Source: Minisyncoccota bacterium
GTDB taxonomy: Bacteria; Patescibacteriota; Minisyncoccia; Phycocordibacterales; Phycocordibacteraceae
Direction: 5' to 3'
Assembly (NCBI GenBank): GCA_035627595.1
Contig: DASPLK010000004.1
Coordinates: 1-40,361 of the forward strand
DNA: 40,361 bases
The stretch's first letter is position 1. Each line of letters opens with the position of its first letter. The notes under the pieces are model-generated. The model made no database searches. It was not told the origin of the DNA and saw only the letters and a list, made by a program, of their open reading frames with translations. Positions 8,614-40,361 of the stretch are shown piece by piece. A program made the position numbers and the translations under genes.

Positions 8614-10023
8614 CTAGCTTAGCTCCTCCAGCAGCACCTCTCGAATTATGCCAGGGTTGCCAGCGCCCTTAGATGCTTTCATGGCTTGCCCCACAAGGAA
8701 TTGCAACGCCGTCTCCTTGCCGGACTTATACTCCCCTGCCGGGCCGGTATGTTCCGCTAGTACGCCTTGTACAAGGGTGCGGATAGACTCCCTGTCGCTG
8801 ACTTGGGCAAGTCCAAGCCTCTTAACTATCTCGCCTGGCTCCCCACCCTCCTCAAGCAAGACCGCTAACGCGTCCTTTGTCCCGCGAGAAGAAATCTCCC
8901 CATCCTTTGTCATGCGAATAAGCGATATGAATGCGTCAGGCAGAAGTGTTTCAAATTCACGTACATTATTTTTTGCATACCATCCGCCTACGTCCGAAAC
9001 AATATAATTTGTTGCAAGCTTAAGAAGCGCGGCGTCGCCATTCGCGAGTCCTGCAATTTTATCGAAAAAAGTACTGCGCTCGATGGTCGAAGTGAGATAG
9101 GCAGCATCAGCGGGAGCAATGCCGAACTCTTCGTACCGAGCACGACGTACCCATGGAAGCTCCGGAAGCGAGTTCGTTATATCAATCTCAGAAAATCCAG
9201 GCATTGAAGTGATCCTAAGCTTGGGGAGGTCTGGCTCTGGAAAGTACCGGTAATCGGCGCTCCCTTCTTTGCTGCGCTGGCGAAAGGTCTTCTGGCCGCT
9301 CTCATCCCAACCTCTCGTCTCCTGCATGATGACTTCCCCGTTCTCAAGAGCAGCAGTCTGACGCTCTATCTCATAGAGGATAGCTCGCTCCACTGAACGG
9401 AACGAATTAAGATTCTTTACCTCTACCTTTGTACCGAACATATCGGTCTCGCTAACAGATACATTCGCTTCTACTCGCATCTCCCCCTTCTCAAGATTTG
9501 CGTGCGAAGCCCCGAGAGTGCGAAGCAAGAGCTGCAGCTCCTTTGCAAAATCAGCGGCGGTTTTTGCATCAGTTATGTCTGGCTCGGTAACGAGCTCCAT
9601 GAGAGGAACTCCTGCCCGATTAAAATCAACAAGGCTCTTCCCACTTTCATGAGATGAACGGGCCGTATCTTCTTCCAAGTGTATCCGTGTTACCGCGATA
9701 CCATTTAGAGACCCTCCTGATACAAGCGGGTGCTCATACTGACTGATCTGGTAACCCTTCGGTATGTCTGGATAAAAATATGACTTTCGATCAAACTCCG
9801 TGAAATCCGCGAGCGTACCGCCAAGCGCTGCTCCGACTCGAAGTACGTGTCGAACCGCCTCTTCGTTTATTGTGGGAAGCGTCCCGGGATGAGCCATGCA
9901 GACGGGACAGACGTTCGCATTCGGCTCACGTTCCTCCGGATCATTCGCACAGGCACAGAACATCTTGGTCCTCGTAGAGAGTTCCGCATGTATCTCAAGG
10001 CCTATAGTTGGGCGATAGCTCAT
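8614..10023 (-). CDS. gatB: Asp-tRNA(Asn)/Glu-tRNA(Gln) amidotransferase subunit B.
   Basis: 469 aa. Typical GatB N-terminus MSYRPTIGLEIHAELSTRTKMFCACAN...NVCPVCMAHPGTLP and motif RKSYFYPDIPKGYQISQ. Confidence 0.95.
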   Translation of the reverse strand: MSYRPTIGLEIHAELSTRTKMFCACANDPEEREPNANVCPVCMAHPGTLPTINEEAVRHVLRVGAALGGTLADFTEFDRKSYFYPDIPKGYQISQYEHPLVSGGSLNGIAVTRIHLEEDTARSSHESGKSLVDFNRAGVPLMELVTEPDITDAKTAADFAKELQLLLRTLGASHANLEKGEMRVEANVSVSETDMFGTKVEVKNLNSFRSVERAILYEIERQTAALENGEVIMQETRGWDESGQKTFRQRSKEGSADYRYFPEPDLPKLRITSMPGFSEIDITNSLPELPWVRRARYEEFGIAPADAAYLTSTIERSTFFDKIAGLANGDAALLKLATNYIVSDVGGWYAKNNVREFETLLPDAFISLIRMTKDGEISSRGTKDALAVLLEEGGEPGEIVKRLGLAQVSDRESIRTLVQGVLAEHTGPAGEYKSGKETALQFLVGQAMKASKGAGNPGIIREVLLEELS

Positions 10024-10071
10024 TATGTAACCAGCTTAGCGTATACAGCGCCTCGTGGGTAGCGTGGAGAA

Positions 10072-11055
10072 CTAAACAGTTCCTTCCCCAGACAGCATCT
10101 GGGAAAGCCTGTCGGAAAACGATTTTAGAAGCTCGTCGTCGAGGATGGAGACAACATAGACCTCTTTGCCTGATACCTCGACAAGCGCCTTACGTTTCGC
10201 CTCAAGTTCCTCCTCTGATACGGAGTCGGCTTTGGACAAAACTACAATTTCTGGCTTTCCAGAAAGCTCCTGTCCAAACGCTTCGAGCTCAGCGCGAATG
10301 CTTTTGTATGCCTCGACCACGTCATCTTGCTCTGCCGAGACCAAGTGAGCTATGTATTTGGTTCGTTCGACATGGCGGAGGAACTTCGAACCGAGACCTC
10401 GGCCTGCCGAGGCACCCTCGATGAGGCCAGGTATGTCTGCTAGCAAAAAGCCGTAGAAATCACCGAGATGCGGATCAAGAGTGGTAAACGGGTAAGCACC
10501 TACTTTAGATCGAGCTCGGGTGAGCGCGTTTAGGAGCGAGGATTTGCCGGCGTTCGGATACCCCACGAACCCGACGTCAGCGATTATCTTAAGGGTTATG
10601 GAGAGCTTTCCGGACTGACCCTGTTTACCTGGGGTTGCCTCTATAGGGTTCTGATTAGCCGCGCCCTTAAAGTGCGCATTTCCTAGACCACCTGCCCCAC
10701 CCTTGTATATGACTTTTTGCTCACCCTCCTCAAGAATTTCGTAGACCTGCCCAGTTACCAGATCGGTCGCAATAGTCCCTACCGGCACTCTAAGTACCGC
10801 TGGAGCGCCGTCAGCACCGTACTTATTATTGTTCGAGCCGGACTGTCCGTTCTGTCCACGAATCGATTTTAGAAACCTAAACGCAGCAAGCGCGCCTAAG
10901 TCGCGTACCCCTTCCAGGATGACATCGCCACCCCTACCCCCGTTACCGCCTGCCGGACCTGCCCTTTCCTTTCCTTTGAGATGCAGCCAGCGCACGACGC
11001 CATCGCCGCCCTTACCTGCAGATGCTTTTATAGTTACTTCATCAACGAATGCCAT
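10072..11055 (-). CDS. obg: GTPase Obg/CgtA (short form).
   Basis: 327 aa. Gly-rich Obg fold FVDEVTIKASAGKGGDGVVRW...GGNGGRGGDVIL, followed by G1 GYPNAGKSSLL and G3 DIPGLIEGA. Confidence 0.95.
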   Translation of the reverse strand: MAFVDEVTIKASAGKGGDGVVRWLHLKGKERAGPAGGNGGRGGDVILEGVRDLGALAAFRFLKSIRGQNGQSGSNNNKYGADGAPAVLRVPVGTIATDLVTGQVYEILEEGEQKVIYKGGAGGLGNAHFKGAANQNPIEATPGKQGQSGKLSITLKIIADVGFVGYPNAGKSSLLNALTRARSKVGAYPFTTLDPHLGDFYGFLLADIPGLIEGASAGRGLGSKFLRHVERTKYIAHLVSAEQDDVVEAYKSIRAELEAFGQELSGKPEIVVLSKADSVSEEELEAKRKALVEVSGKEVYVVSILDDELLKSFSDRLSQMLSGEGTV

Positions 11056-28793: not shown

Positions 28794-30158
28794 TCAGCGT
28801 ACGACAAGTGCTGCACTACAGGCAAGCAAATTCCCAAACAGGCATAAAAGCCAGGTGGGTGTGTTTGAGGAGACCAATGCCGCCCCCACTGCAGCTTGTT
28901 GAGCAGCTGCAGTGGGGGCTTCTATGACCTCTTCATATGACTGCGTTGCGACAGGTGCTAGTAAATCGACCATTCTCATCTCTTGTATACCGCCTGTGCG
29001 GACTATAGGTTTCTGAGCCGCTATAGGCGTCGCGTTCATTTCCTCTACAATGGCCGGTTCAGCGACCGCTACCGTCTCCCCTTTCGGGAACAAAAGCGAT
29101 ATCGGCGTACCCGTTGCGAGTCCTGTCACCTCTGTAGCGAACACGACCGAACTTCCCGGCCAGAGCGCGGTATCGTCTGGGAACACGAAAGCACCCTCTC
29201 CTGCTGCTAGTTGCCACTGTGACAGATCAACGAGACGTTGCCCAATATTGGTAACTCGTATTCCGGCTGTTTCTGTCGCCACATCTATCGCCGCGTTCTC
29301 CACGACGACTTTGAGCGTGCGCAACACCTCTGCCTCTTTATGCGTAGCGCGAACGATGAGCGCGTATTCTCCGGGAGCACGGTACGCGTGTTCGACCGCT
29401 TTGCCTTCCGCGCGTGTGCCGTCCCCAAAGCTCCACGTGACCTTAGCGTCCTCAATTGCACGCTCGTTTTTGCTGTATATGACAGCCGTATAAGGAGTAG
29501 GTACTTGCGCGAGCACAATGCGATCGTTACCCGCATCTATTGAAATGGTACGTCGAGGGCTCTGTACGTGCGAACTCGTCGATGGAGCCGTACCCCCTAC
29601 GGTAACGACCGGCGTTGTTGTGCCGGTCTCATCCTCTTCTTCGTCATCTGCTTCATCTTCGTTTCCACCAATTATGTTTACTGCTCGCGGTGTGGGCGTA
29701 CCTGTCGACCACAAAGAGCCGTTCCGCTGTGGTGTCGCTTTCGTACTGTTATTGCCGCCGATGTTCTTCCAGTCTGTACCCCCAACGACCGTGTCTATTG
29801 CGGCCCCGGACGAGTCCGTAAGTGTAAGCGTGCTGCCATCGTTACTTAATGCGCCCGTGTAGACCTTGTCCGCCTGTATATCCGGTACGGTGGCATCGTC
29901 CGTGCGTTCAAGTAGATAGTACCCGCCGGCGGCGATAGAGCCCGTGAGCGTAATGTTAGGCGCCGTGCCCGAAGATGTAATGGTCCAGCCAGAAAGCGAA
30001 ACTTCCTCCGTTCCGTCATTGTAGAGTTCTATCCATTCATCGGTATCGCTTACCGACGTGCCCATCCACGCTATCTCGCTGATGACGACCCCTGCGTGCG
30101 CTGCGCTTGGCGCAATTAGTGTCGACAGCACGAGTAGCGAGATGAGTCGGTTAGACAT
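28794..30158 (-). CDS. Secreted, C-terminally membrane-anchored protein: signal peptide, lamin-tail domain (LTD), acidic linker, PKD domain, second LTD-like domain, C-terminal TM helix.
   Basis: Start at MSNRLISLLVLSTLIAPSAAHA (ATG 30158). LTD pattern VVISEIAWMGTSVSDTDEWIELYNDGTEEVSLSGWTI. PKD pattern VTWSFGDGTRAEGKAVEHAYRAPGEYALIVRA. C-terminal helix TWLLCLFGNLLACSAALVV. The sequence ATGTCTAA gives an 8-nt overlap with the upstream stop. Confidence 0.8.
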   Translation of the reverse strand: MSNRLISLLVLSTLIAPSAAHAGVVISEIAWMGTSVSDTDEWIELYNDGTEEVSLSGWTITSSGTAPNITLTGSIAAGGYYLLERTDDATVPDIQADKVYTGALSNDGSTLTLTDSSGAAIDTVVGGTDWKNIGGNNSTKATPQRNGSLWSTGTPTPRAVNIIGGNEDEADDEEEDETGTTTPVVTVGGTAPSTSSHVQSPRRTISIDAGNDRIVLAQVPTPYTAVIYSKNERAIEDAKVTWSFGDGTRAEGKAVEHAYRAPGEYALIVRATHKEAEVLRTLKVVVENAAIDVATETAGIRVTNIGQRLVDLSQWQLAAGEGAFVFPDDTALWPGSSVVFATEVTGLATGTPISLLFPKGETVAVAEPAIVEEMNATPIAAQKPIVRTGGIQEMRMVDLLAPVATQSYEEVIEAPTAAAQQAAVGAALVSSNTPTWLLCLFGNLLACSAALVVR

Positions 30159-31866
30159 TGTCCTTGAAGATGGCGCGCAGCGTATCCTCGGGAACTTCAA
30201 ATGGTTGTGGTCCCTCTTGCCGCGGCGCTGACTCTCTGCGCTCTTGTCTTTGCTCAGAGCGCGGAAGCTCCTTATTTCGCGGATGCGCTGGAAGCTCTTT
30301 GGCACGCGGACGTTCCGGTAGCTCTGTCCCCTGGATGACCTCTTTGAGTGCAGTCTTAATGCCTGACTGATGCTTTTTTTCCTCTCCCTGCTTCTCCCTT
30401 TTCGCGCCTTCAGACATGCTGCGAAGTATTGCCTTCAAATCATCGGCACTTTTTGGAGTTGGTTCTGGCCGCTTAGGCGCGGGTTCTGCGCGCGGCGGTA
30501 CATCGCGCCTAGGCGCAGGCTTCTTCTGTCCGTCCCAACGCTTCTTCTCTGCAGGCGGCTCAGGCGGAATGTCCGCGGTCGCGGCCAGCTCTGAGAATAT
30601 AAGCCCCTCAACGGTCTCGCGCGGCGTCGCGAACTGGCGTCGTGAAGACTCTAGGACCTCGTTCCGGAACGTGCGTGCAGGCGCTTCGATAGGCGGTATG
30701 GTGACTGCGGAGAACGGGCGGGAGCCAACGCCATCGATCATAAGGGAGAGATAGATCTGCGTCTTGCCGAGGTTCACAATATCCTCCTTCATAAATTCCG
30801 GGGAGAAAACTGTCTCGAGCACCTCTGCATCGAACGGACCGACGCGGAACGAGACCGTGCTGCCGACGTTGCCGAACACAGCAGCACGCACCTCCTCCTC
30901 CATCTGCTCCACGTACTGGTGCGCGATGATCAGATTTAGCTTGTACTTGCGGGCCTCAGAAAGGATCTCAGCGAACGTCTCGTTCGCGAAGTTCTGGAAC
31001 TCGTCCACATAGAAATAGAAGTTTGGAAGCTTTGCGATATCGTGCGCCGAAAGGTCGGCACGGCTCATCGCCGCAAGGAAGATGCGCGTCGTAATCATAG
31101 AACCGAGGAGCTTCATGTTCGTATCGCCAACGAGACCCTTGGAGAGATTGATCAGAATAATCTTCTTCTGGTCCATCGCTTCGCGTATATCGAAGGAAGA
31201 CTTCGGCTGGCCGATAATATTGCGGATGAGGGGGTTTGAGGTGAACTGGCCGATCTTATTCTGGATTGCAGGGGTCGCTTCCTGCGTGTAGCGATCGGTA
31301 TACGTCGCGAACTCCTTTACCCAGAAGTCCTTTACCAAGGGGTCCTTCACATTCTCAACCACCTTCTTGCGGTACGCCTTGTCGGTATACATGCGGTTCA
31401 CGCCCATCAGTGTTGCGTCCGGATACTCAAGAAGCGCGAGGAGTGTGTTGGAGAGGATGTACTCCATGCGGGCGCTCCACGCATCCACCCAGATCTTTTT
31501 GAAGGTCGCCATGAGGCCCGAAACCACGAGGTGTCGCTTGTCGTACCCGACGTCCTCCATGACGTTGAACGCGACCGGGTTCTCCATATCAAACGGCGCG
31601 AAATAGACAACGTCCTGGATGCGGTTCTCCGGTATGTACTCAAGGAGTGCGTCCACCGCACTTCCGTGTGGGTCGATGAATGCAAGACCTTCCCCGTTCC
31701 GGATGTCCTGGATGGCCATGTTCTCGAGGAGGGTCGACTTACCCATACCCGTCTTCCCGATGACGTACATGTGGCGGTCGCGGTCGCGACTTTTAATGCC
31801 GAACGGCACGCGCTTACCGCGGGAATCGGTTGCTGCAAAGTACGTGATCCGATCCGGATTATCCAT
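30151..31866 (-). CDS. Soluble TraD/VirD4/TrwB-family (type IV coupling-protein-like) P-loop NTPase with a charged, Pro-rich, presumably disordered C-terminal tail of about 170 aa.
   Basis: 571 aa. Walker A VIGKTGMGKST and Walker B FYFYVDEFQNF, plus IIAHQY. No N-terminal TM helices. The tail contains KELP repeats (ELPERPRAKELPAHPRNKELPRSEQ). Confidence 0.7.
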   Translation of the reverse strand: MDNPDRITYFAATDSRGKRVPFGIKSRDRDRHMYVIGKTGMGKSTLLENMAIQDIRNGEGLAFIDPHGSAVDALLEYIPENRIQDVVYFAPFDMENPVAFNVMEDVGYDKRHLVVSGLMATFKKIWVDAWSARMEYILSNTLLALLEYPDATLMGVNRMYTDKAYRKKVVENVKDPLVKDFWVKEFATYTDRYTQEATPAIQNKIGQFTSNPLIRNIIGQPKSSFDIREAMDQKKIILINLSKGLVGDTNMKLLGSMITTRIFLAAMSRADLSAHDIAKLPNFYFYVDEFQNFANETFAEILSEARKYKLNLIIAHQYVEQMEEEVRAAVFGNVGSTVSFRVGPFDAEVLETVFSPEFMKEDIVNLGKTQIYLSLMIDGVGSRPFSAVTIPPIEAPARTFRNEVLESSRRQFATPRETVEGLIFSELAATADIPPEPPAEKKRWDGQKKPAPRRDVPPRAEPAPKRPEPTPKSADDLKAILRSMSEGAKREKQGEEKKHQSGIKTALKEVIQGTELPERPRAKELPAHPRNKELPRSEQRQERRESAPRQEGPQPFEVPEDTLRAIFKDNV

Positions 31867-38195: not shown

Positions 38196-38271
38196 TGGTG
38201 CAAGTGGTAGGATTCGAACCTACGACCGCTCGAGTATCAGTCGAGTGCTCTACCAACTGAGCTACACTTGC
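38196..38271 (-). tRNA. tRNA-Ile (anticodon GAU), CCA encoded.
   Basis: The minus strand folds by hand as GCAAGTG-TA-GCTC-AGTTGGTA-GAGC-A-CTCGA-CTGATAC-TCGAG-CGGTC-GTAGG-TTCGAAT-CCTAC-CACTTGC-A-CCA. All four stems are Watson-Crick paired, and the total is 76 nt. Confidence 0.9.
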
Positions 38272-38490
38272 CTGTCCTTAGACTCATGGATACTAACAGA
38301 AAGACCTGGGCTTTTCCAGCGTCTCATCTATAGTAATGGGAAGGATGATACACCGCGGTACAACCCGGGAATCCAAAGGCCTCCGGCTTCGGAGGGACTC
38401 CACTATCGATGATAAATACCGTCGGCATCGCAATAAGATGCGCATTTGGCGCCGGTGCGTGAAGAAAATAGATACGCAGGCCGTGCCAGC

Positions 38491-38526
38491 GTAAAGACAA
38501 AGCGCCCCAGCAAAGCCAGGGCGCTC
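38491..38526 (-). terminator. Intrinsic terminator after the small ORF.
   Basis: The minus strand reads AGCGCCCTGG-CTTTG-CTGGGGCGCT (10-bp stem including 2 G-U pairs), followed by TTGTCTTT. Confidence 0.6.
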
Positions 38527-38550
38527 GAGACGCACACGAGGTGCGCTTGG

Positions 38551-38766
38551 TCAGCTCAACGGATATGGCGGCGATTCATAGTAGCGCCATTTGCTGATGC
38601 GTTCGTCAGTGGGAAGAAGCTTGTGCTCCTGAACCCACATCTTTCGCTTGCCGCGCTTGACTCGATACCAGTAACCGTTGTAACCGGAGTGCCACCAGCG
38701 CGTGAACGCAGAAGGCATCGCAGTACGTCCGGCGTTCGAGCCGACATTCAAAGAACTCATTGTCAT
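38551..38766 (-). CDS. Small basic, Trp/Tyr-rich hypothetical protein (71 aa).
   Basis: ATG start, with sequence ...FTRWWHSGYNGYWYRVKRGKRKMWVQEHKLL...KWRYYESPPYPLS. It is followed within about 25 nt by a terminator and preceded by TATAAT at 38818-38823. No family recognised. Confidence 0.4.
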   Translation of the reverse strand: MTMSSLNVGSNAGRTAMPSAFTRWWHSGYNGYWYRVKRGKRKMWVQEHKLLPTDERISKWRYYESPPYPLS

Positions 38767-38843
38767 GCACTACCCTTTGCTCAGAAATGACAGGAATGCG
38801 CGGAGCGCGACTTATCAATTATAACAGTAAAGTATTATGAAGT

Positions 38844-39344
38844 CTAGTCCACTGTAACGACAACACTATCCTCCCAGTCTGTAATTGGCTCATCCGCGGG
38901 TCCAGGATGCCAGAGAGTGACAATAATTGTGTATGCGCCTGGCTCCTTGTACGTGTGCGTTTTGACGCTCTGGGAGCAACTTTCTCCCTCTGATTCCGCC
39001 TCAAACAGCGGTTCTGTTGTTCCGTCTCCCCACTCTACGGAGAGGCCATTGCCGCCGGGTCCAAACCAGCCGACCGAGATGACGCAGGAATCGATCTTCT
39101 CAAGAACGGGCGCAGGACCCGTTATAGTCACGGTTCTTCCGTTTACCTCAGCATCCAATCCGCGCGAGCCAGAATAGATAGTTCCCTGCGCACTCTGTCC
39201 CACAACCTCCGCTTCCTGCGAAGGCGCCTCTACTACAGGCGCTATGACCTCCGGGCGCGGGGTCTGCGTATATATAAACGCCAGCGTTATCAAAAGCACG
39301 GTGCCGGCAAGTGAAGCAGCAACAAGACGTGGATGCTCTTTCAT
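38844..39344 (-). CDS. Membrane-anchored or secreted PKD-domain protein.
   Basis: 166 aa. N-terminal helix LVAASLAGTVLLITLAFIY, then PKD-like VEWGDGTTEP...HTYKEPGAYTIIVTLW. Confidence 0.7.
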   Translation of the reverse strand: MKEHPRLVAASLAGTVLLITLAFIYTQTPRPEVIAPVVEAPSQEAEVVGQSAQGTIYSGSRGLDAEVNGRTVTITGPAPVLEKIDSCVISVGWFGPGGNGLSVEWGDGTTEPLFEAESEGESCSQSVKTHTYKEPGAYTIIVTLWHPGPADEPITDWEDSVVVTVD

Positions 39345-39350
39345 ATCTAT

Positions 39351-39356
39351 AGTATA
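39351..39356 (-). promoter_or_regulatory. -10-like TATACT exactly 6 nt upstream of ATG 39344.
   Basis: The coding strand reads GGCCTATACT-ATAGAT-ATG. Confidence 0.4.
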
Positions 39357-39370
39357 GGCCTCAAATGCCT

Positions 39371-39410
39371 AAAACGCACAACAGCCCCGGGTGGGGCTGT
39401 TGTGTCTTTT
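39371..39410. terminator. Strong bidirectional intrinsic terminator closing the 16S transcription unit.
   Basis: aaaacg-cacaacagcccc-gggt-ggggctgttgtg-tctttt: a perfect 12-bp stem with U-tracts in both orientations. Confidence 0.8.
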
Positions 39411-39557
39411 CACTAAATAGTTCGATTCTAGAAGGAGTGTTGAGTGCTCTTGTGTTCCGCCTATTCAGGACTGAGAAGTTCAATTGAGACTTCCCAGTAT
39501 CCTACCGGTTCGTTTTTCCGGCGTCCGGGTACCATTTAGGGATTAGTACCATTTCCC

Positions 39558-39635
39558 CTAGGTAGCTGCATGTCGGGAGCTATCAATAGAAAGACAAGTC
39601 CTTCTGAAAATAACTCCCAACATGCAGCCACCTAG
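39558..39635 (-). ncRNA. Long rod-like hairpin in the 16S 3' trailer or intervening sequence. A 25-bp outer stem (39558-39582 with 39611-39635) and an 8-bp inner stem (39588-39595 with 39598-39605).
   Basis: All four non-Watson-Crick positions are G-U on the minus-strand RNA and would be A-C mismatches on the plus strand. This indicates a structure selected in the same orientation as the 16S. Confidence 0.6.
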
Positions 39636-39670
39636 ATCGACGTGAGTGTCATTCCTGACATCTCGTTCCG

Positions 39671-40361
39671 ATTGGATATGTTCCACGACCAGCTTCCGCT
39701 AGCCGTGCCTTGTTACGACTTACTCCCTGTCATTGAATTTGCCGTAGTCCTGGACAAGCCAAGATGTCGGGCACCTCCAACTTCCTTGAGTTGACGGGCG
39801 GTGAGTACAAGACTCGAGAACGTATTCACCGTAGTATGGCTGACCTACGATTACTAGTGATTCCGGCTTCAAGAGGTCGGTTGCAGACCTCTATCCGTAC
39901 TGGGGTCGGTTTTTGGGATTTGCTCCACCTTGCGGTATTGCTTCCTTCTGTACCGACCATTGTATCACGTGTGCAGCCCAGGGCATCAAGGGACATGCTG
40001 ATTTGGCGTCATCCTCACCTTCCTCCCCCGTGAGGGGGCAGTCTCGCCTGACATAAGTAACAGACAACGAGGGTTGCGTTCGTTACCCCACTGAAGGGAA
40101 CAGCTCAAGCCACGAACTGACGACAACCATGCATCACCTGCCAAGCACCCTCGAAGGCTTCCTCCGTTTCTGGAGGCGTGCAGCTTGGTTTCTAGCCCTG
40201 GTAAGGTTCTTCGCTTAGCTACGAATTAAGCCACATGATCCACCACTTGTGCGAGTCCCCGTCTATTCCTTTGAGTTTTAAGCTTGCGCTCGTACTACCC
40301 AGGCGGCTCGCTTACCGCGTTAGCTTAGCCTCGCAGAGGGTCGATACTCCGCAAAGCGAGC
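39671..40361 (-). rRNA. rrs: 16S rRNA gene, 3' portion (about E. coli position 850 to the 3' end). The 5' part lies beyond the right edge. The 3' boundary is uncertain and could extend to about 39427 if the trailer is an excised insertion.
   Basis: Reverse complements of universal sites are present: ccgtctattcctttgagttt (40259-40278, 907R-like), gggttgcgttcgtt (40071-40084), gacgggcggtgagtacaag (39793-39811, 1392R-like) and ccttgttacgactt (39708-39721, 1492R-like). Helix 45 reads CACGGCUAGC-GGAA-GCUGGUCGUG (39684-39707). Confidence 0.9.

Follow-up and report, generated by a model that had tools for sequence, protein, structure and literature searches.

Does the 16S ribosomal RNA (rRNA) encoded at the edge of this contig end in a degenerate tail, or is its proper 3′ end interrupted and completed further downstream? 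The window, the 40,361-nt contig DASPLK010000004.1 of a Minisyncoccota bacterium (assembly GCA_035627595.1), holds on its minus strand the 3′ part of a 16S rRNA gene whose tail, behind helix 45, has no CCUCC core of the anti-Shine-Dalgarno (anti-SD) sequence. A preliminary description of this DNA had pointed to a tail-like ACACUCCUUCUAGA at 39440-39427, with CUCCUU at 39437-39432, which is indeed present, and had proposed two models: a degenerate anti-SD in place followed by a structured 3′ trailer, or an intervening sequence of 230–245 nt whose removal restores ...GGA/ACACUCCUU. Our data favor the first. Very probably, the window encodes a 16S rRNA that lost its anti-SD in place, and what follows is a conserved spacer of the pre-rRNA rather than an intron that conceals the tail.

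The degenerate tail occupies the positions of a canonical one. Aligned to the Rfam bacterial small-subunit (SSU) rRNA model (RF00177), GAACAUAUCCAAU stands opposite GAUCACCUCCUUU, one column per column, and the model ends at 39671; the window reads GGAACAUAUCCAAU where the counterpart in other bacteria is GGAUCACCUCCUUA and the Rfam consensus GGAUCACCUCCUUU. In these columns the anti-SD core is UAUCC where CCUCC is expected, exactly as first described, and in what we take to be E. coli numbering the changes are U1532A, C1535U and C1536A plus the last three bases. Helix 45 had been called intact, and it is: none of its 10 pairs is lost in 22 relatives, and compensatory changes occur at one pair. 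CCUCC was not found on the minus strand within 39300-39720, its nearest copy lying inside the 16S gene at 40176. Two public assemblies are 100% identical to the window where they overlap it, the ENA contig covering 39802-39345 and the Logan contig, which stems from another run, 39533-39345. Because both match exactly and the same tails occur across relatives, the tail is not the assembly error that had been raised as an alternative.

The tail is also not peculiar to this contig. A MurD-like protein encoded 2 kb downstream of the 16S gene has relatives in 80 species-level genomes (55-76% identity), nearly all of them metagenome-assembled genomes (MAGs) labelled Paceibacterota, Parcubacteria, Kaiserbacteria or Patescibacteria, with some records otherwise labelled. 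A 16S 3′ end is present at 40 of these MurD loci, with orientation and surroundings as in the window, and our comparison set consists of 37 distinct syntenic relatives that combine the 16S 3′ end with the MurD neighbourhood. The 16S relatives are 82-97% identical to the window, the closest, L029, at 97%; judged by its MurD and 16S relatives, the window can be placed in the Parcubacteria/Paceibacteria. CCUCC is absent from the tail in 37 of the 37 syntenic relatives, 24 of which share the tail of the window. Intermediate forms survive, with GAUCACUUCC in L065, GAUCAUUUCC in L038, GAUCAUAUCC in L046 and GAACAUAUCC in the window, and more decayed forms include GAUUAAUUCA. Read from the sequences, these forms are ordered as a decay series, GAUCACCUCC > GAUCACUUCC > GAUCAUAUCC > GAACAUAUCC, that would have arisen by point substitutions in place.

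A collection-wide pattern search for the helix 45 of this clade followed by a non-C at the second core position widened the picture to at least 120 species-level Paceibacteria genomes with a non-CCUCC tail, which together hold 25 tail variants; the tail of the window recurs in 20 of 120 further species among the matches listed. The same helix 45 with the canonical GGAUCACCUCC was found in 15 species only. CCUCC within the 300 nt after the tail is rare, occurring in just 8 of 116 anti-SD-less genomes among the matches listed, and the anti-SD has therefore not been relocated. The window tail is thus a case of clade-wide degeneration in place, in a lineage that has lost the anti-SD.

Two observations concern the bases around the tail. 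In L082-L095, which have the canonical tail, several loci carry an SD-like AAGGAG, GGGAG or GGAG directly after CCUCCUUUCU, able to pair with the anti-SD. At the equivalent place the window clade has a residual UCC and then AAUC-GGA. A small UCC/GGA hairpin of the tail and an AUCGG/UCGAU helix around the first trailer hairpin, P2, are possible alternatives, and their columns are nearly invariant in the close clade.

Initiation in this lineage agrees with a 16S rRNA that has no anti-SD. The gene set comprised 233 genes, drawn from the window and from 14 close relatives. At -20 to -3, SD tetramers occur at 0.47-0.65 times their coding-sequence frequency; they are found in 10% of window genes and in 10-12% of upstream regions overall, close to a rough chance estimate of 14%, and no GGAGG was found upstream of the long open reading frames (ORFs) of the window. 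The enriched upstream words are TATA, ATAC, TACT and similar, and in the window TATAAT-like boxes sit a few bases ahead of the ATG of long ORFs. TANNNT hexamers most often begin at -12, in a sharp peak (42 of 233 genes, with about 3-14 at neighbouring positions), and 47% of window genes have a box starting at -16 to -11, versus 13% in a control zone. A -10-like box at -12 has the geometry expected if transcription starts at the A of the ATG. Many genes are predicted to be transcribed as leaderless mRNAs, with the -10 box at -12 to -7, and the remaining genes also have no SD motif; the link to leaderless starts drawn in the preliminary description is supported. GGAU and GAUA, complementary to the new tail, are not enriched upstream of starts in these genes, and a 'new SD' pairing with the altered tail was rejected on that ground. 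At loci of canonical-tail relatives SD motifs are likewise few, at 12% in a small sample (n=50) with crude starts, which suggests that SD-independent initiation preceded the loss of the anti-SD. The loss would then be tolerated because the lineage, with its many predicted leaderless mRNAs, does not use SD pairing.

Behind the tail lie about 215 nt of conserved structure. A 361-nt region spanning this trailer folds with z = -10.5, and the trailer is 70-80% identical in relatives whose 16S is 90-97% identical. On an alignment of 22 sequences (A1) we specified the structure, and the elements follow in a fixed order: tail, P2, GUCGAU, P3, a pseudoknot-like element, P5, P6 and the block GAAUAGGCGGAACACAAGAG (Table 1). 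The specified structure pairs 94.5% of cells versus 30-42% in slid controls and includes 25 pairs with compensatory changes versus 5-9; its covariation score was reached by none of 500 shuffles.

Table 1. Features at the 3′ end of the 16S unit, in the order of transcription
Feature	Coordinates	Strand	Basis and remarks
16S rRNA gene, 3′ 691 nt (model positions 815-1533)	39671..40361	-	Rfam RF00177, 605.3 bits, E = 9e-190, threshold 50
Helix 45, CACGGCUAGC-GGAA-GCUGGUCGUG, GGAA loop, 10 bp, intact	39684..39707	-	Rfam alignment, sequence inspection
Degenerate 3′ tail GAACAUAUCCAAU, replacing GAUCACCUCCUUA	39671..39683	-	Rfam SSU model alignment
Hairpin P2, GAGAUGUCA-GGAA-UGACACUC, GNRA-type loop	39644..39664	-	7/8 pairs compensatory
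Conserved single-stranded motif GUCGAU	39636..39641	-	GUCGA invariant, last U at least 90% conserved in 22 close relatives
Hairpin P3 ('rod'), 27 + 7 bp	39558..39635	-	-55.4 kcal/mol, z = -12.6
Proposed H-type pseudoknot	39529..39558	-	S1 GGGG (39558-39555)/CCCU (39541-39538); S2 GGUAC (39549-39545)/GUACC (39533-39529)
Hairpin P5, GCCGG-AAAAACGAA-CCGGU, conserved 9-nt loop	39504..39522	-	96% of cells paired; 2/5 pairs compensatory
Hairpin P6, conserved loop CUCAAUUGA	39467..39503	-	7/10 pairs compensatory; loop nearly invariant
Conserved core GAAUAGGCGGAACACAAGAG, putative 3′ strand of pre-16S leader-trailer processing helix	39447..39466	-	Nearly invariant in relatives
Inferred distal variable part of leader-trailer helix, including CUCCUU 39437-39432	39415..39446	-	By relatives
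Probable intrinsic terminator of the 16S unit: 13-bp G+C-rich hairpin (39405-39376), then GCG-UUUU	39371..39405	-	Hairpin scored on the plus strand
tRNA-Ile (GAU)	38196..38271	-	ARAGORN; Rfam tRNA, 78 bits

Around P2, RNAalifold predicts a helix between AUCGG (39672-39668) and UCGAU (39640-39636), which is almost invariant and hence uninformative for covariation. The GUCGAU motif recurs beyond the alignment: of 116 further species without an anti-SD among the matches listed, 98 have GUCGR at +15 to +120 from the tail, and GUCGA is also seen in canonical-tail relatives. Standing directly 3′ of the first trailer helix, GUCGA(U) is a candidate recognition or cleavage site for maturation of the 3′ end.

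P3 was originally described as a rod hairpin of 25 plus 8 bp at 39558-39635; the location stands, and folding corrects the pairing to 27 plus 7 bp. Its non-Watson-Crick pairs are G-U on the minus strand as had been noted, four in the long stem, to which one in the apical stem is added. The plus strand has mismatches in their place, and its fold reaches only -38.1 kcal/mol, 17 kcal/mol weaker, which makes the structure specific to the minus-strand RNA. Conservation and covariation in relatives, named earlier as a check on this hairpin, are both found: the long form in 10 relatives has compensatory changes in 17 of 25 pairs. In the alignment the element measures 51-86 nt in 12 of 22 sequences and 15-24 nt, mostly with a UUCG or GNRA cap, in the other 10, and P3 behaves as a helix of variable length at a fixed position. 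An exact 41-nt piece of P3 had no match in metagenome_contigs. Rfam microRNA and CRISPR-repeat matches to P3 were far below gathering scores and were set aside as generic long-hairpin matches.

In the proposed pseudoknot all 6 pairs of S2 are compensatory, as are 2 of the 4 pairs of S1, where GC changes to AU in 3 and 6 sequences; GGGG/CCCU of S1 becomes GAGA/UCUC or GAGG/CCUU in different relatives. The two direct repeats AAAUGGUAC previously reported are present at 39554-39546 and 39537-39529, where they overlap both arms of S2, GGUACC being self-complementary. Downstream, the P5 loop is conserved in A1 as AAAAACGCA. Searching with a covariance model of the 3′ half of the trailer (R1) recovered the module directly behind the 16S gene of 8 distant relatives without an anti-SD (E <= 0.0023); among 100 further anti-SD-less loci it was recovered in 34.

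The trailer closes with a block that pairs with the leader. In relatives, 26 nt of the trailer recur by BLAST as a reverse complement about 1.5 kb upstream, and Rfam puts the 5′ end of the 16S exactly there. In 11 relatives the leader UUUUCUUGUGUUCCGCCUAUU abuts 16S position 1 and pairs, from -1 to about -19, with the trailer GAAUAGGCGGAACACAAGAG. This core of 19 bp is invariant, so it is uninformative for covariation, and the core of the window is identical to that of the relatives. Support comes from the distal part, which differs among L001, L013, L016, L022, L028 and L029 and in each is still complementary to its own leader, and from cofolding in the 11 relatives, which gives -56 to -76 kcal/mol versus -30 to -45 with a shuffled trailer. 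Together, block and leader form what is by analogy a classic, putative pre-16S processing helix, and the duplex is long enough for an RNase III substrate.

This helix accounts for the tail-like sequence downstream. Past the conserved core CUCCU occurs in only 5 of 37 relatives, at differing offsets, and CCUCC in 1 of 37; in L001 and L022 the pyrimidine run of the trailer pairs with a purine run of the leader. As far as the sequences can tell, CUCCUU is incidental, a part of the variable distal leader-trailer helix. Beyond it, the minus-strand U-run of the probable terminator is 4 U, one short of the criterion of the scan tool, and relatives have clearer hairpin and U-run terminators at the equivalent place. 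A boxA-like antitermination element, (C)GCUCUUCGAAAACUGAAUA (UGCUCUAUGACAAUUGAAUA in L029), stands in the leaders of L001, L003, L006, L015 and L029, about 45-75 nt before the 16S begins; a hairpin and a TATA-type box precede it, the arrangement of classical rrn leaders.

A structured trailer is not confined to relatives without an anti-SD. Canonical-tail relatives (GGAUCACCUCCUUUCUA) have 160-270 nt between the tail and the leader-pairing block, with the GUCGA motif and an element of pseudoknot topology. RNAduplex gave sprawling duplexes on their long leaders and trailers, and obvious complementary blocks alone were used there. The presence of a long structured trailer in these relatives means that the trailer is neither a consequence of nor a compensation for the lost anti-SD.

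A unifying model based on these data is that a Paceibacteria lineage would have lost the anti-SD by in-place point substitutions, and that the 215 nt or so after the tail would be the 3′ transcribed spacer of a stand-alone 16S unit, with the 23S gene elsewhere. The spacer would consist of the array from P2 through GUCGAU, P3, the H-type pseudoknot and P5 to P6, closing with the 20-nt leader-pairing block. Genomes of the Candidate Phyla Radiation (CPR) retain RNase III (rnc), RNase J (rnj) and PNPase (pnp) (PMC12641178). RNase III would cut the long leader-trailer duplex, RNase J would finish the 16S 5′ end, and the spacer would be lost through endonucleolytic cleavage close to GUCGAU and/or digestion by a 3′ exonuclease such as PNPase. 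The mature 16S would then end near 39671 with no functional anti-SD. This corresponds to the first of the two models proposed earlier, for which the tail in canonical columns, the graded series and the conserved spacer all speak.

Several points weigh against this model. Removal of the spacer is deduced by analogy with other bacteria. The closing helix is seen in relatives, the nearest being L029 with 97% 16S identity, and the leader of the window itself lies beyond the window; two assemblies with the neighbouring ORF both stop inside or before the 16S gene. Trailers of canonical-tail relatives are not detected by R1, and their resemblance to the trailer of the window clade, with any homology on that footing, is by eye only. 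Gene starts in the SD and leaderless statistics are crude, each being the first ATG of a long ORF. Finally, the processing helix is asymmetric, abutting the 16S 5′ end yet lying about 215 nt from helix 45, and this asymmetry together with the GNRA loop, the pseudoknot and the invariant loops is more elaborate than a plain spacer needs.

These last features raise the thought that the 3′ module enclosed with the 16S by the leader-trailer helix is a Paceibacteria-specific functional RNA domain, either a retained 3′-terminal extension or a cis-acting assembly or quality-control element, which we regard as rather unlikely. The latter could serve ribosomes that are without Era, the anti-SD and several biogenesis factors. 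Taken by itself, the former would keep the trailer of about 215 nt on the mature SSU rRNA as an 'expansion segment', perhaps acting near the mRNA exit or platform after the loss of the anti-SD. With the leader strand at the mature 5′ end and the trailer strand some 215 nt past helix 45, a single cut would leave the trailer attached; moreover, the module with its GNRA loop, pseudoknot and invariant loops (CUCAAUUGA, AAAAACGCA) is conserved and shows covariation, like folded functional RNAs, and the length variation of P3 resembles that of expansion segments. However, the trailer evolves far faster than rRNA, trailers of comparable length occur in canonical-tail relatives whose anti-SD is presumably free, and structured conserved spacers are known in other bacteria. 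To our knowledge, no such 3′ extension has been reported for any bacterial ribosome, which also counts against retention, and we consider it unlikely.

The strong, conserved and strand-specific covarying structure could also belong to a separate stable small RNA, co-transcribed with the 16S and released by processing like spacer tRNAs, and the trailer does lie within the processing helix that would release it and the 16S together. This is very unlikely, as no Rfam family matches, the elements set in immediately with the 16S tail, which seems to take part in the first helix, the length of the middle element ranges from 15 to 86 nt, and no copy was seen away from the 16S, other covariance-model matches being weak (E > 0.005).

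Still less survives of an intervening sequence from about 39680 to 39441 that would be removed by splicing, or by RNase III excision and joining, to restore ...GUCGUGGA/ACACUCCUU. The attraction of this reading is that ACACUCCUU is present about 230 nt downstream in the window and that introns do occur in CPR 16S genes; in L003, Rfam finds a group I intron (Intron_gpI, 54.3 bits) immediately 5′ of helix 45, containing a 242-aa ORF. The same search, which includes group I and group II models, found no intron family in 39250-39800 of the window even at E <= 10. Since introns at the 3′ end occur and are detectable in this clade, the window trailer is not an intron. Presence/absence polymorphism at a fixed site was not seen either: the trailer is there in every relative with sequence at that place, and canonical tails are complete before the trailer. 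Nor are the flanks that would restore the rRNA after excision conserved; CUCCU is absent in 32 of the 37 relatives, which share the tail and trailer, and the upstream tail is full length, the degenerate tail still occupying the canonical columns. In addition, CUCCUU lies within the distal helix that pairs with the leader, the genes use no SD motifs anyway, and RNase III excision does not re-ligate RNA. We judge this explanation extremely improbable.

A sequencing or assembly error behind the odd tail, or a decaying rRNA pseudogene, has a negligible probability. The contig does break inside the 16S, which is common in metagenome assemblies, but independent assemblies are identical, the tail occurs in dozens of MAGs from unrelated studies, and the rest of the gene, with an intact helix 45, reaches 605 bits.

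Anti-SD loss in Parcubacteria was already known, and the window confirms it and adds detail. Tsurumaki et al. detected the anti-SD motif in just 48% of Parcubacteria, the lacking group overlapping the group that lacks uL1 (PMC9297842), and a 2024 survey describes Campbellbacteria and Wolfebacteria as SD-scarce and without CCUCC (PMC10783764). The anti-SD-lacking Parcubacteria come from the same neighbourhood as the window (Kaiser-, Nomura-, Taylor- and Zambryskibacteria), which is likewise without CCUCC(U) and without SD use. The available portions of these papers give presence or absence of the motif only, and the decay series, the -12 box, the trailer and its closing helix are not described there. 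The loss flagged as notable in the preliminary description is real, and its novelty has to be lowered in view of these publications. Era, which reads GAUCACCUCC, is lost in most CPR (PMC10582724), and this fits the GAUCA-to-GAACA change in the tail, a link that we infer ourselves. A limited literature search turned up no account of the decay series, the -12 promoter-box peak in this clade or a conserved, covarying trailer inside the processing helix. Anti-SD loss is rare in bacteria, and the window offers a clean example of in-place, clade-wide decay with many predicted leaderless starts. What appears to be new is the decay series with its intermediates, which lets the order of events be reconstructed, and the 3′ trailer, some 170-250 nt of conserved and covarying RNA that includes a pseudoknot and lies within the pre-16S processing helix. 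A bacterial ribosome, or its assembly pathway, would gain an unusual component if this trailer proved to be retained or to have a function.

Known systems resemble parts of this arrangement. In E. coli and B. subtilis, as in the window clade, a long duplex of 5′ leader and 3′ trailer encloses the 16S, its variable part covaries, and a boxA-like element stands in the leader. The 3′ strand of E. coli lies a few tens of nt past the mature 16S end, whereas in the window clade about 215 nt of conserved structure precede the 3′ strand and the 5′ strand abuts the mature end. Cyanobacterial 16S-23S spacers (D1-D1′ helix, box B, box A, V3) share the fixed order of helices, the compensatory changes and the variable-length helices in between. 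The spacer of the window is instead a 3′ external spacer of a split operon, with a terminator at its end, a pseudoknot and a GNRA hairpin, and the likeness is one of layout. Translation without SD/anti-SD pairing is also found in Bacteroidetes/Flavobacteria and in mitochondria. Mitochondria combine an anti-SD-less SSU rRNA with leaderless mRNAs, as is predicted for the window lineage, with no relation by descent, and Flavobacteria keep CCUCC sequestered by ribosomal proteins, whereas in the window lineage the sequence itself is lost.

Group I introns are among the insertions that Brown et al. (2015) reportedly described in CPR 16S genes, and insertions, which the preliminary description mentioned for CPR, are found here in the relatives L003, L017 and L055. 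Such introns lie within the rRNA; the trailer of the window, in contrast, comes after the tail, matches no intron model and is a spacer in all relatives. Among the insertions, L003 (5321-8921) carries three in its 16S: one near position 580 resembles a group I intron (34 bits, below threshold), one of about 430 nt gives a weak match to group II D1-D4, and the third is the 54-bit group I intron. The 16S genes of L083 and L092 span about 2.4 kb and about 3.3 kb.

The surroundings of the gene describe a split operon. The 5′ part of the 16S is cut off by the window end (40361), and no 23S gene was found behind the 16S in the window. Classical rRNA operons usually have tRNA-Ile (GAU) as their first spacer tRNA, and in the window this tRNA is followed by murD (Pfam Mur ligase domains), not by 23S. 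Relatives have tRNA-Ile(GAU) about 350-500 nt past the 16S and then murD. The 16S is a stand-alone transcription unit, and the first spacer tRNA of the classical rrn operon is retained though the operon is split; unlinked rRNA genes have been described in Patescibacteria (bioRxiv 10.1101/705046). The gene order 16S, trailer, terminator, tRNA-Ile(GAU), murD is seen in the window (38196-39671, minus strand) and in L001, L006, L013, L015, L016, L022 and L029. Between trailer and tRNA the window also has a 166-aa ORF (38844-39344) with a weak sub-threshold PKD match and a TATACT box at -12 to -7; relatives are without an ORF there.

Farther away, a 571-aa protein of the window (30151-31866, minus strand) has TrwB/TraG-type coupling-protein domains, as in type IV secretion or conjugation ATPases. 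Its ORF adjoins that of a large protein with LTD and PKD domains, in surroundings that are otherwise housekeeping (mur genes, SecA, GatB); the neighbouring ORF lies in L218 at 9645-10959. The public MAG records L081, L084, L086, L088, L090, L094, L095 and L110 and many 'Candidatus Saccharibacteria' have the Paceibacteria-type helix 45 and neighbourhood. The labels on such records, 'uncultured Gammaproteobacteria', 'Spiroplasmataceae' and 'Candidatus Saccharibacteria', are probably taxonomic mislabels or reflect bin contamination.

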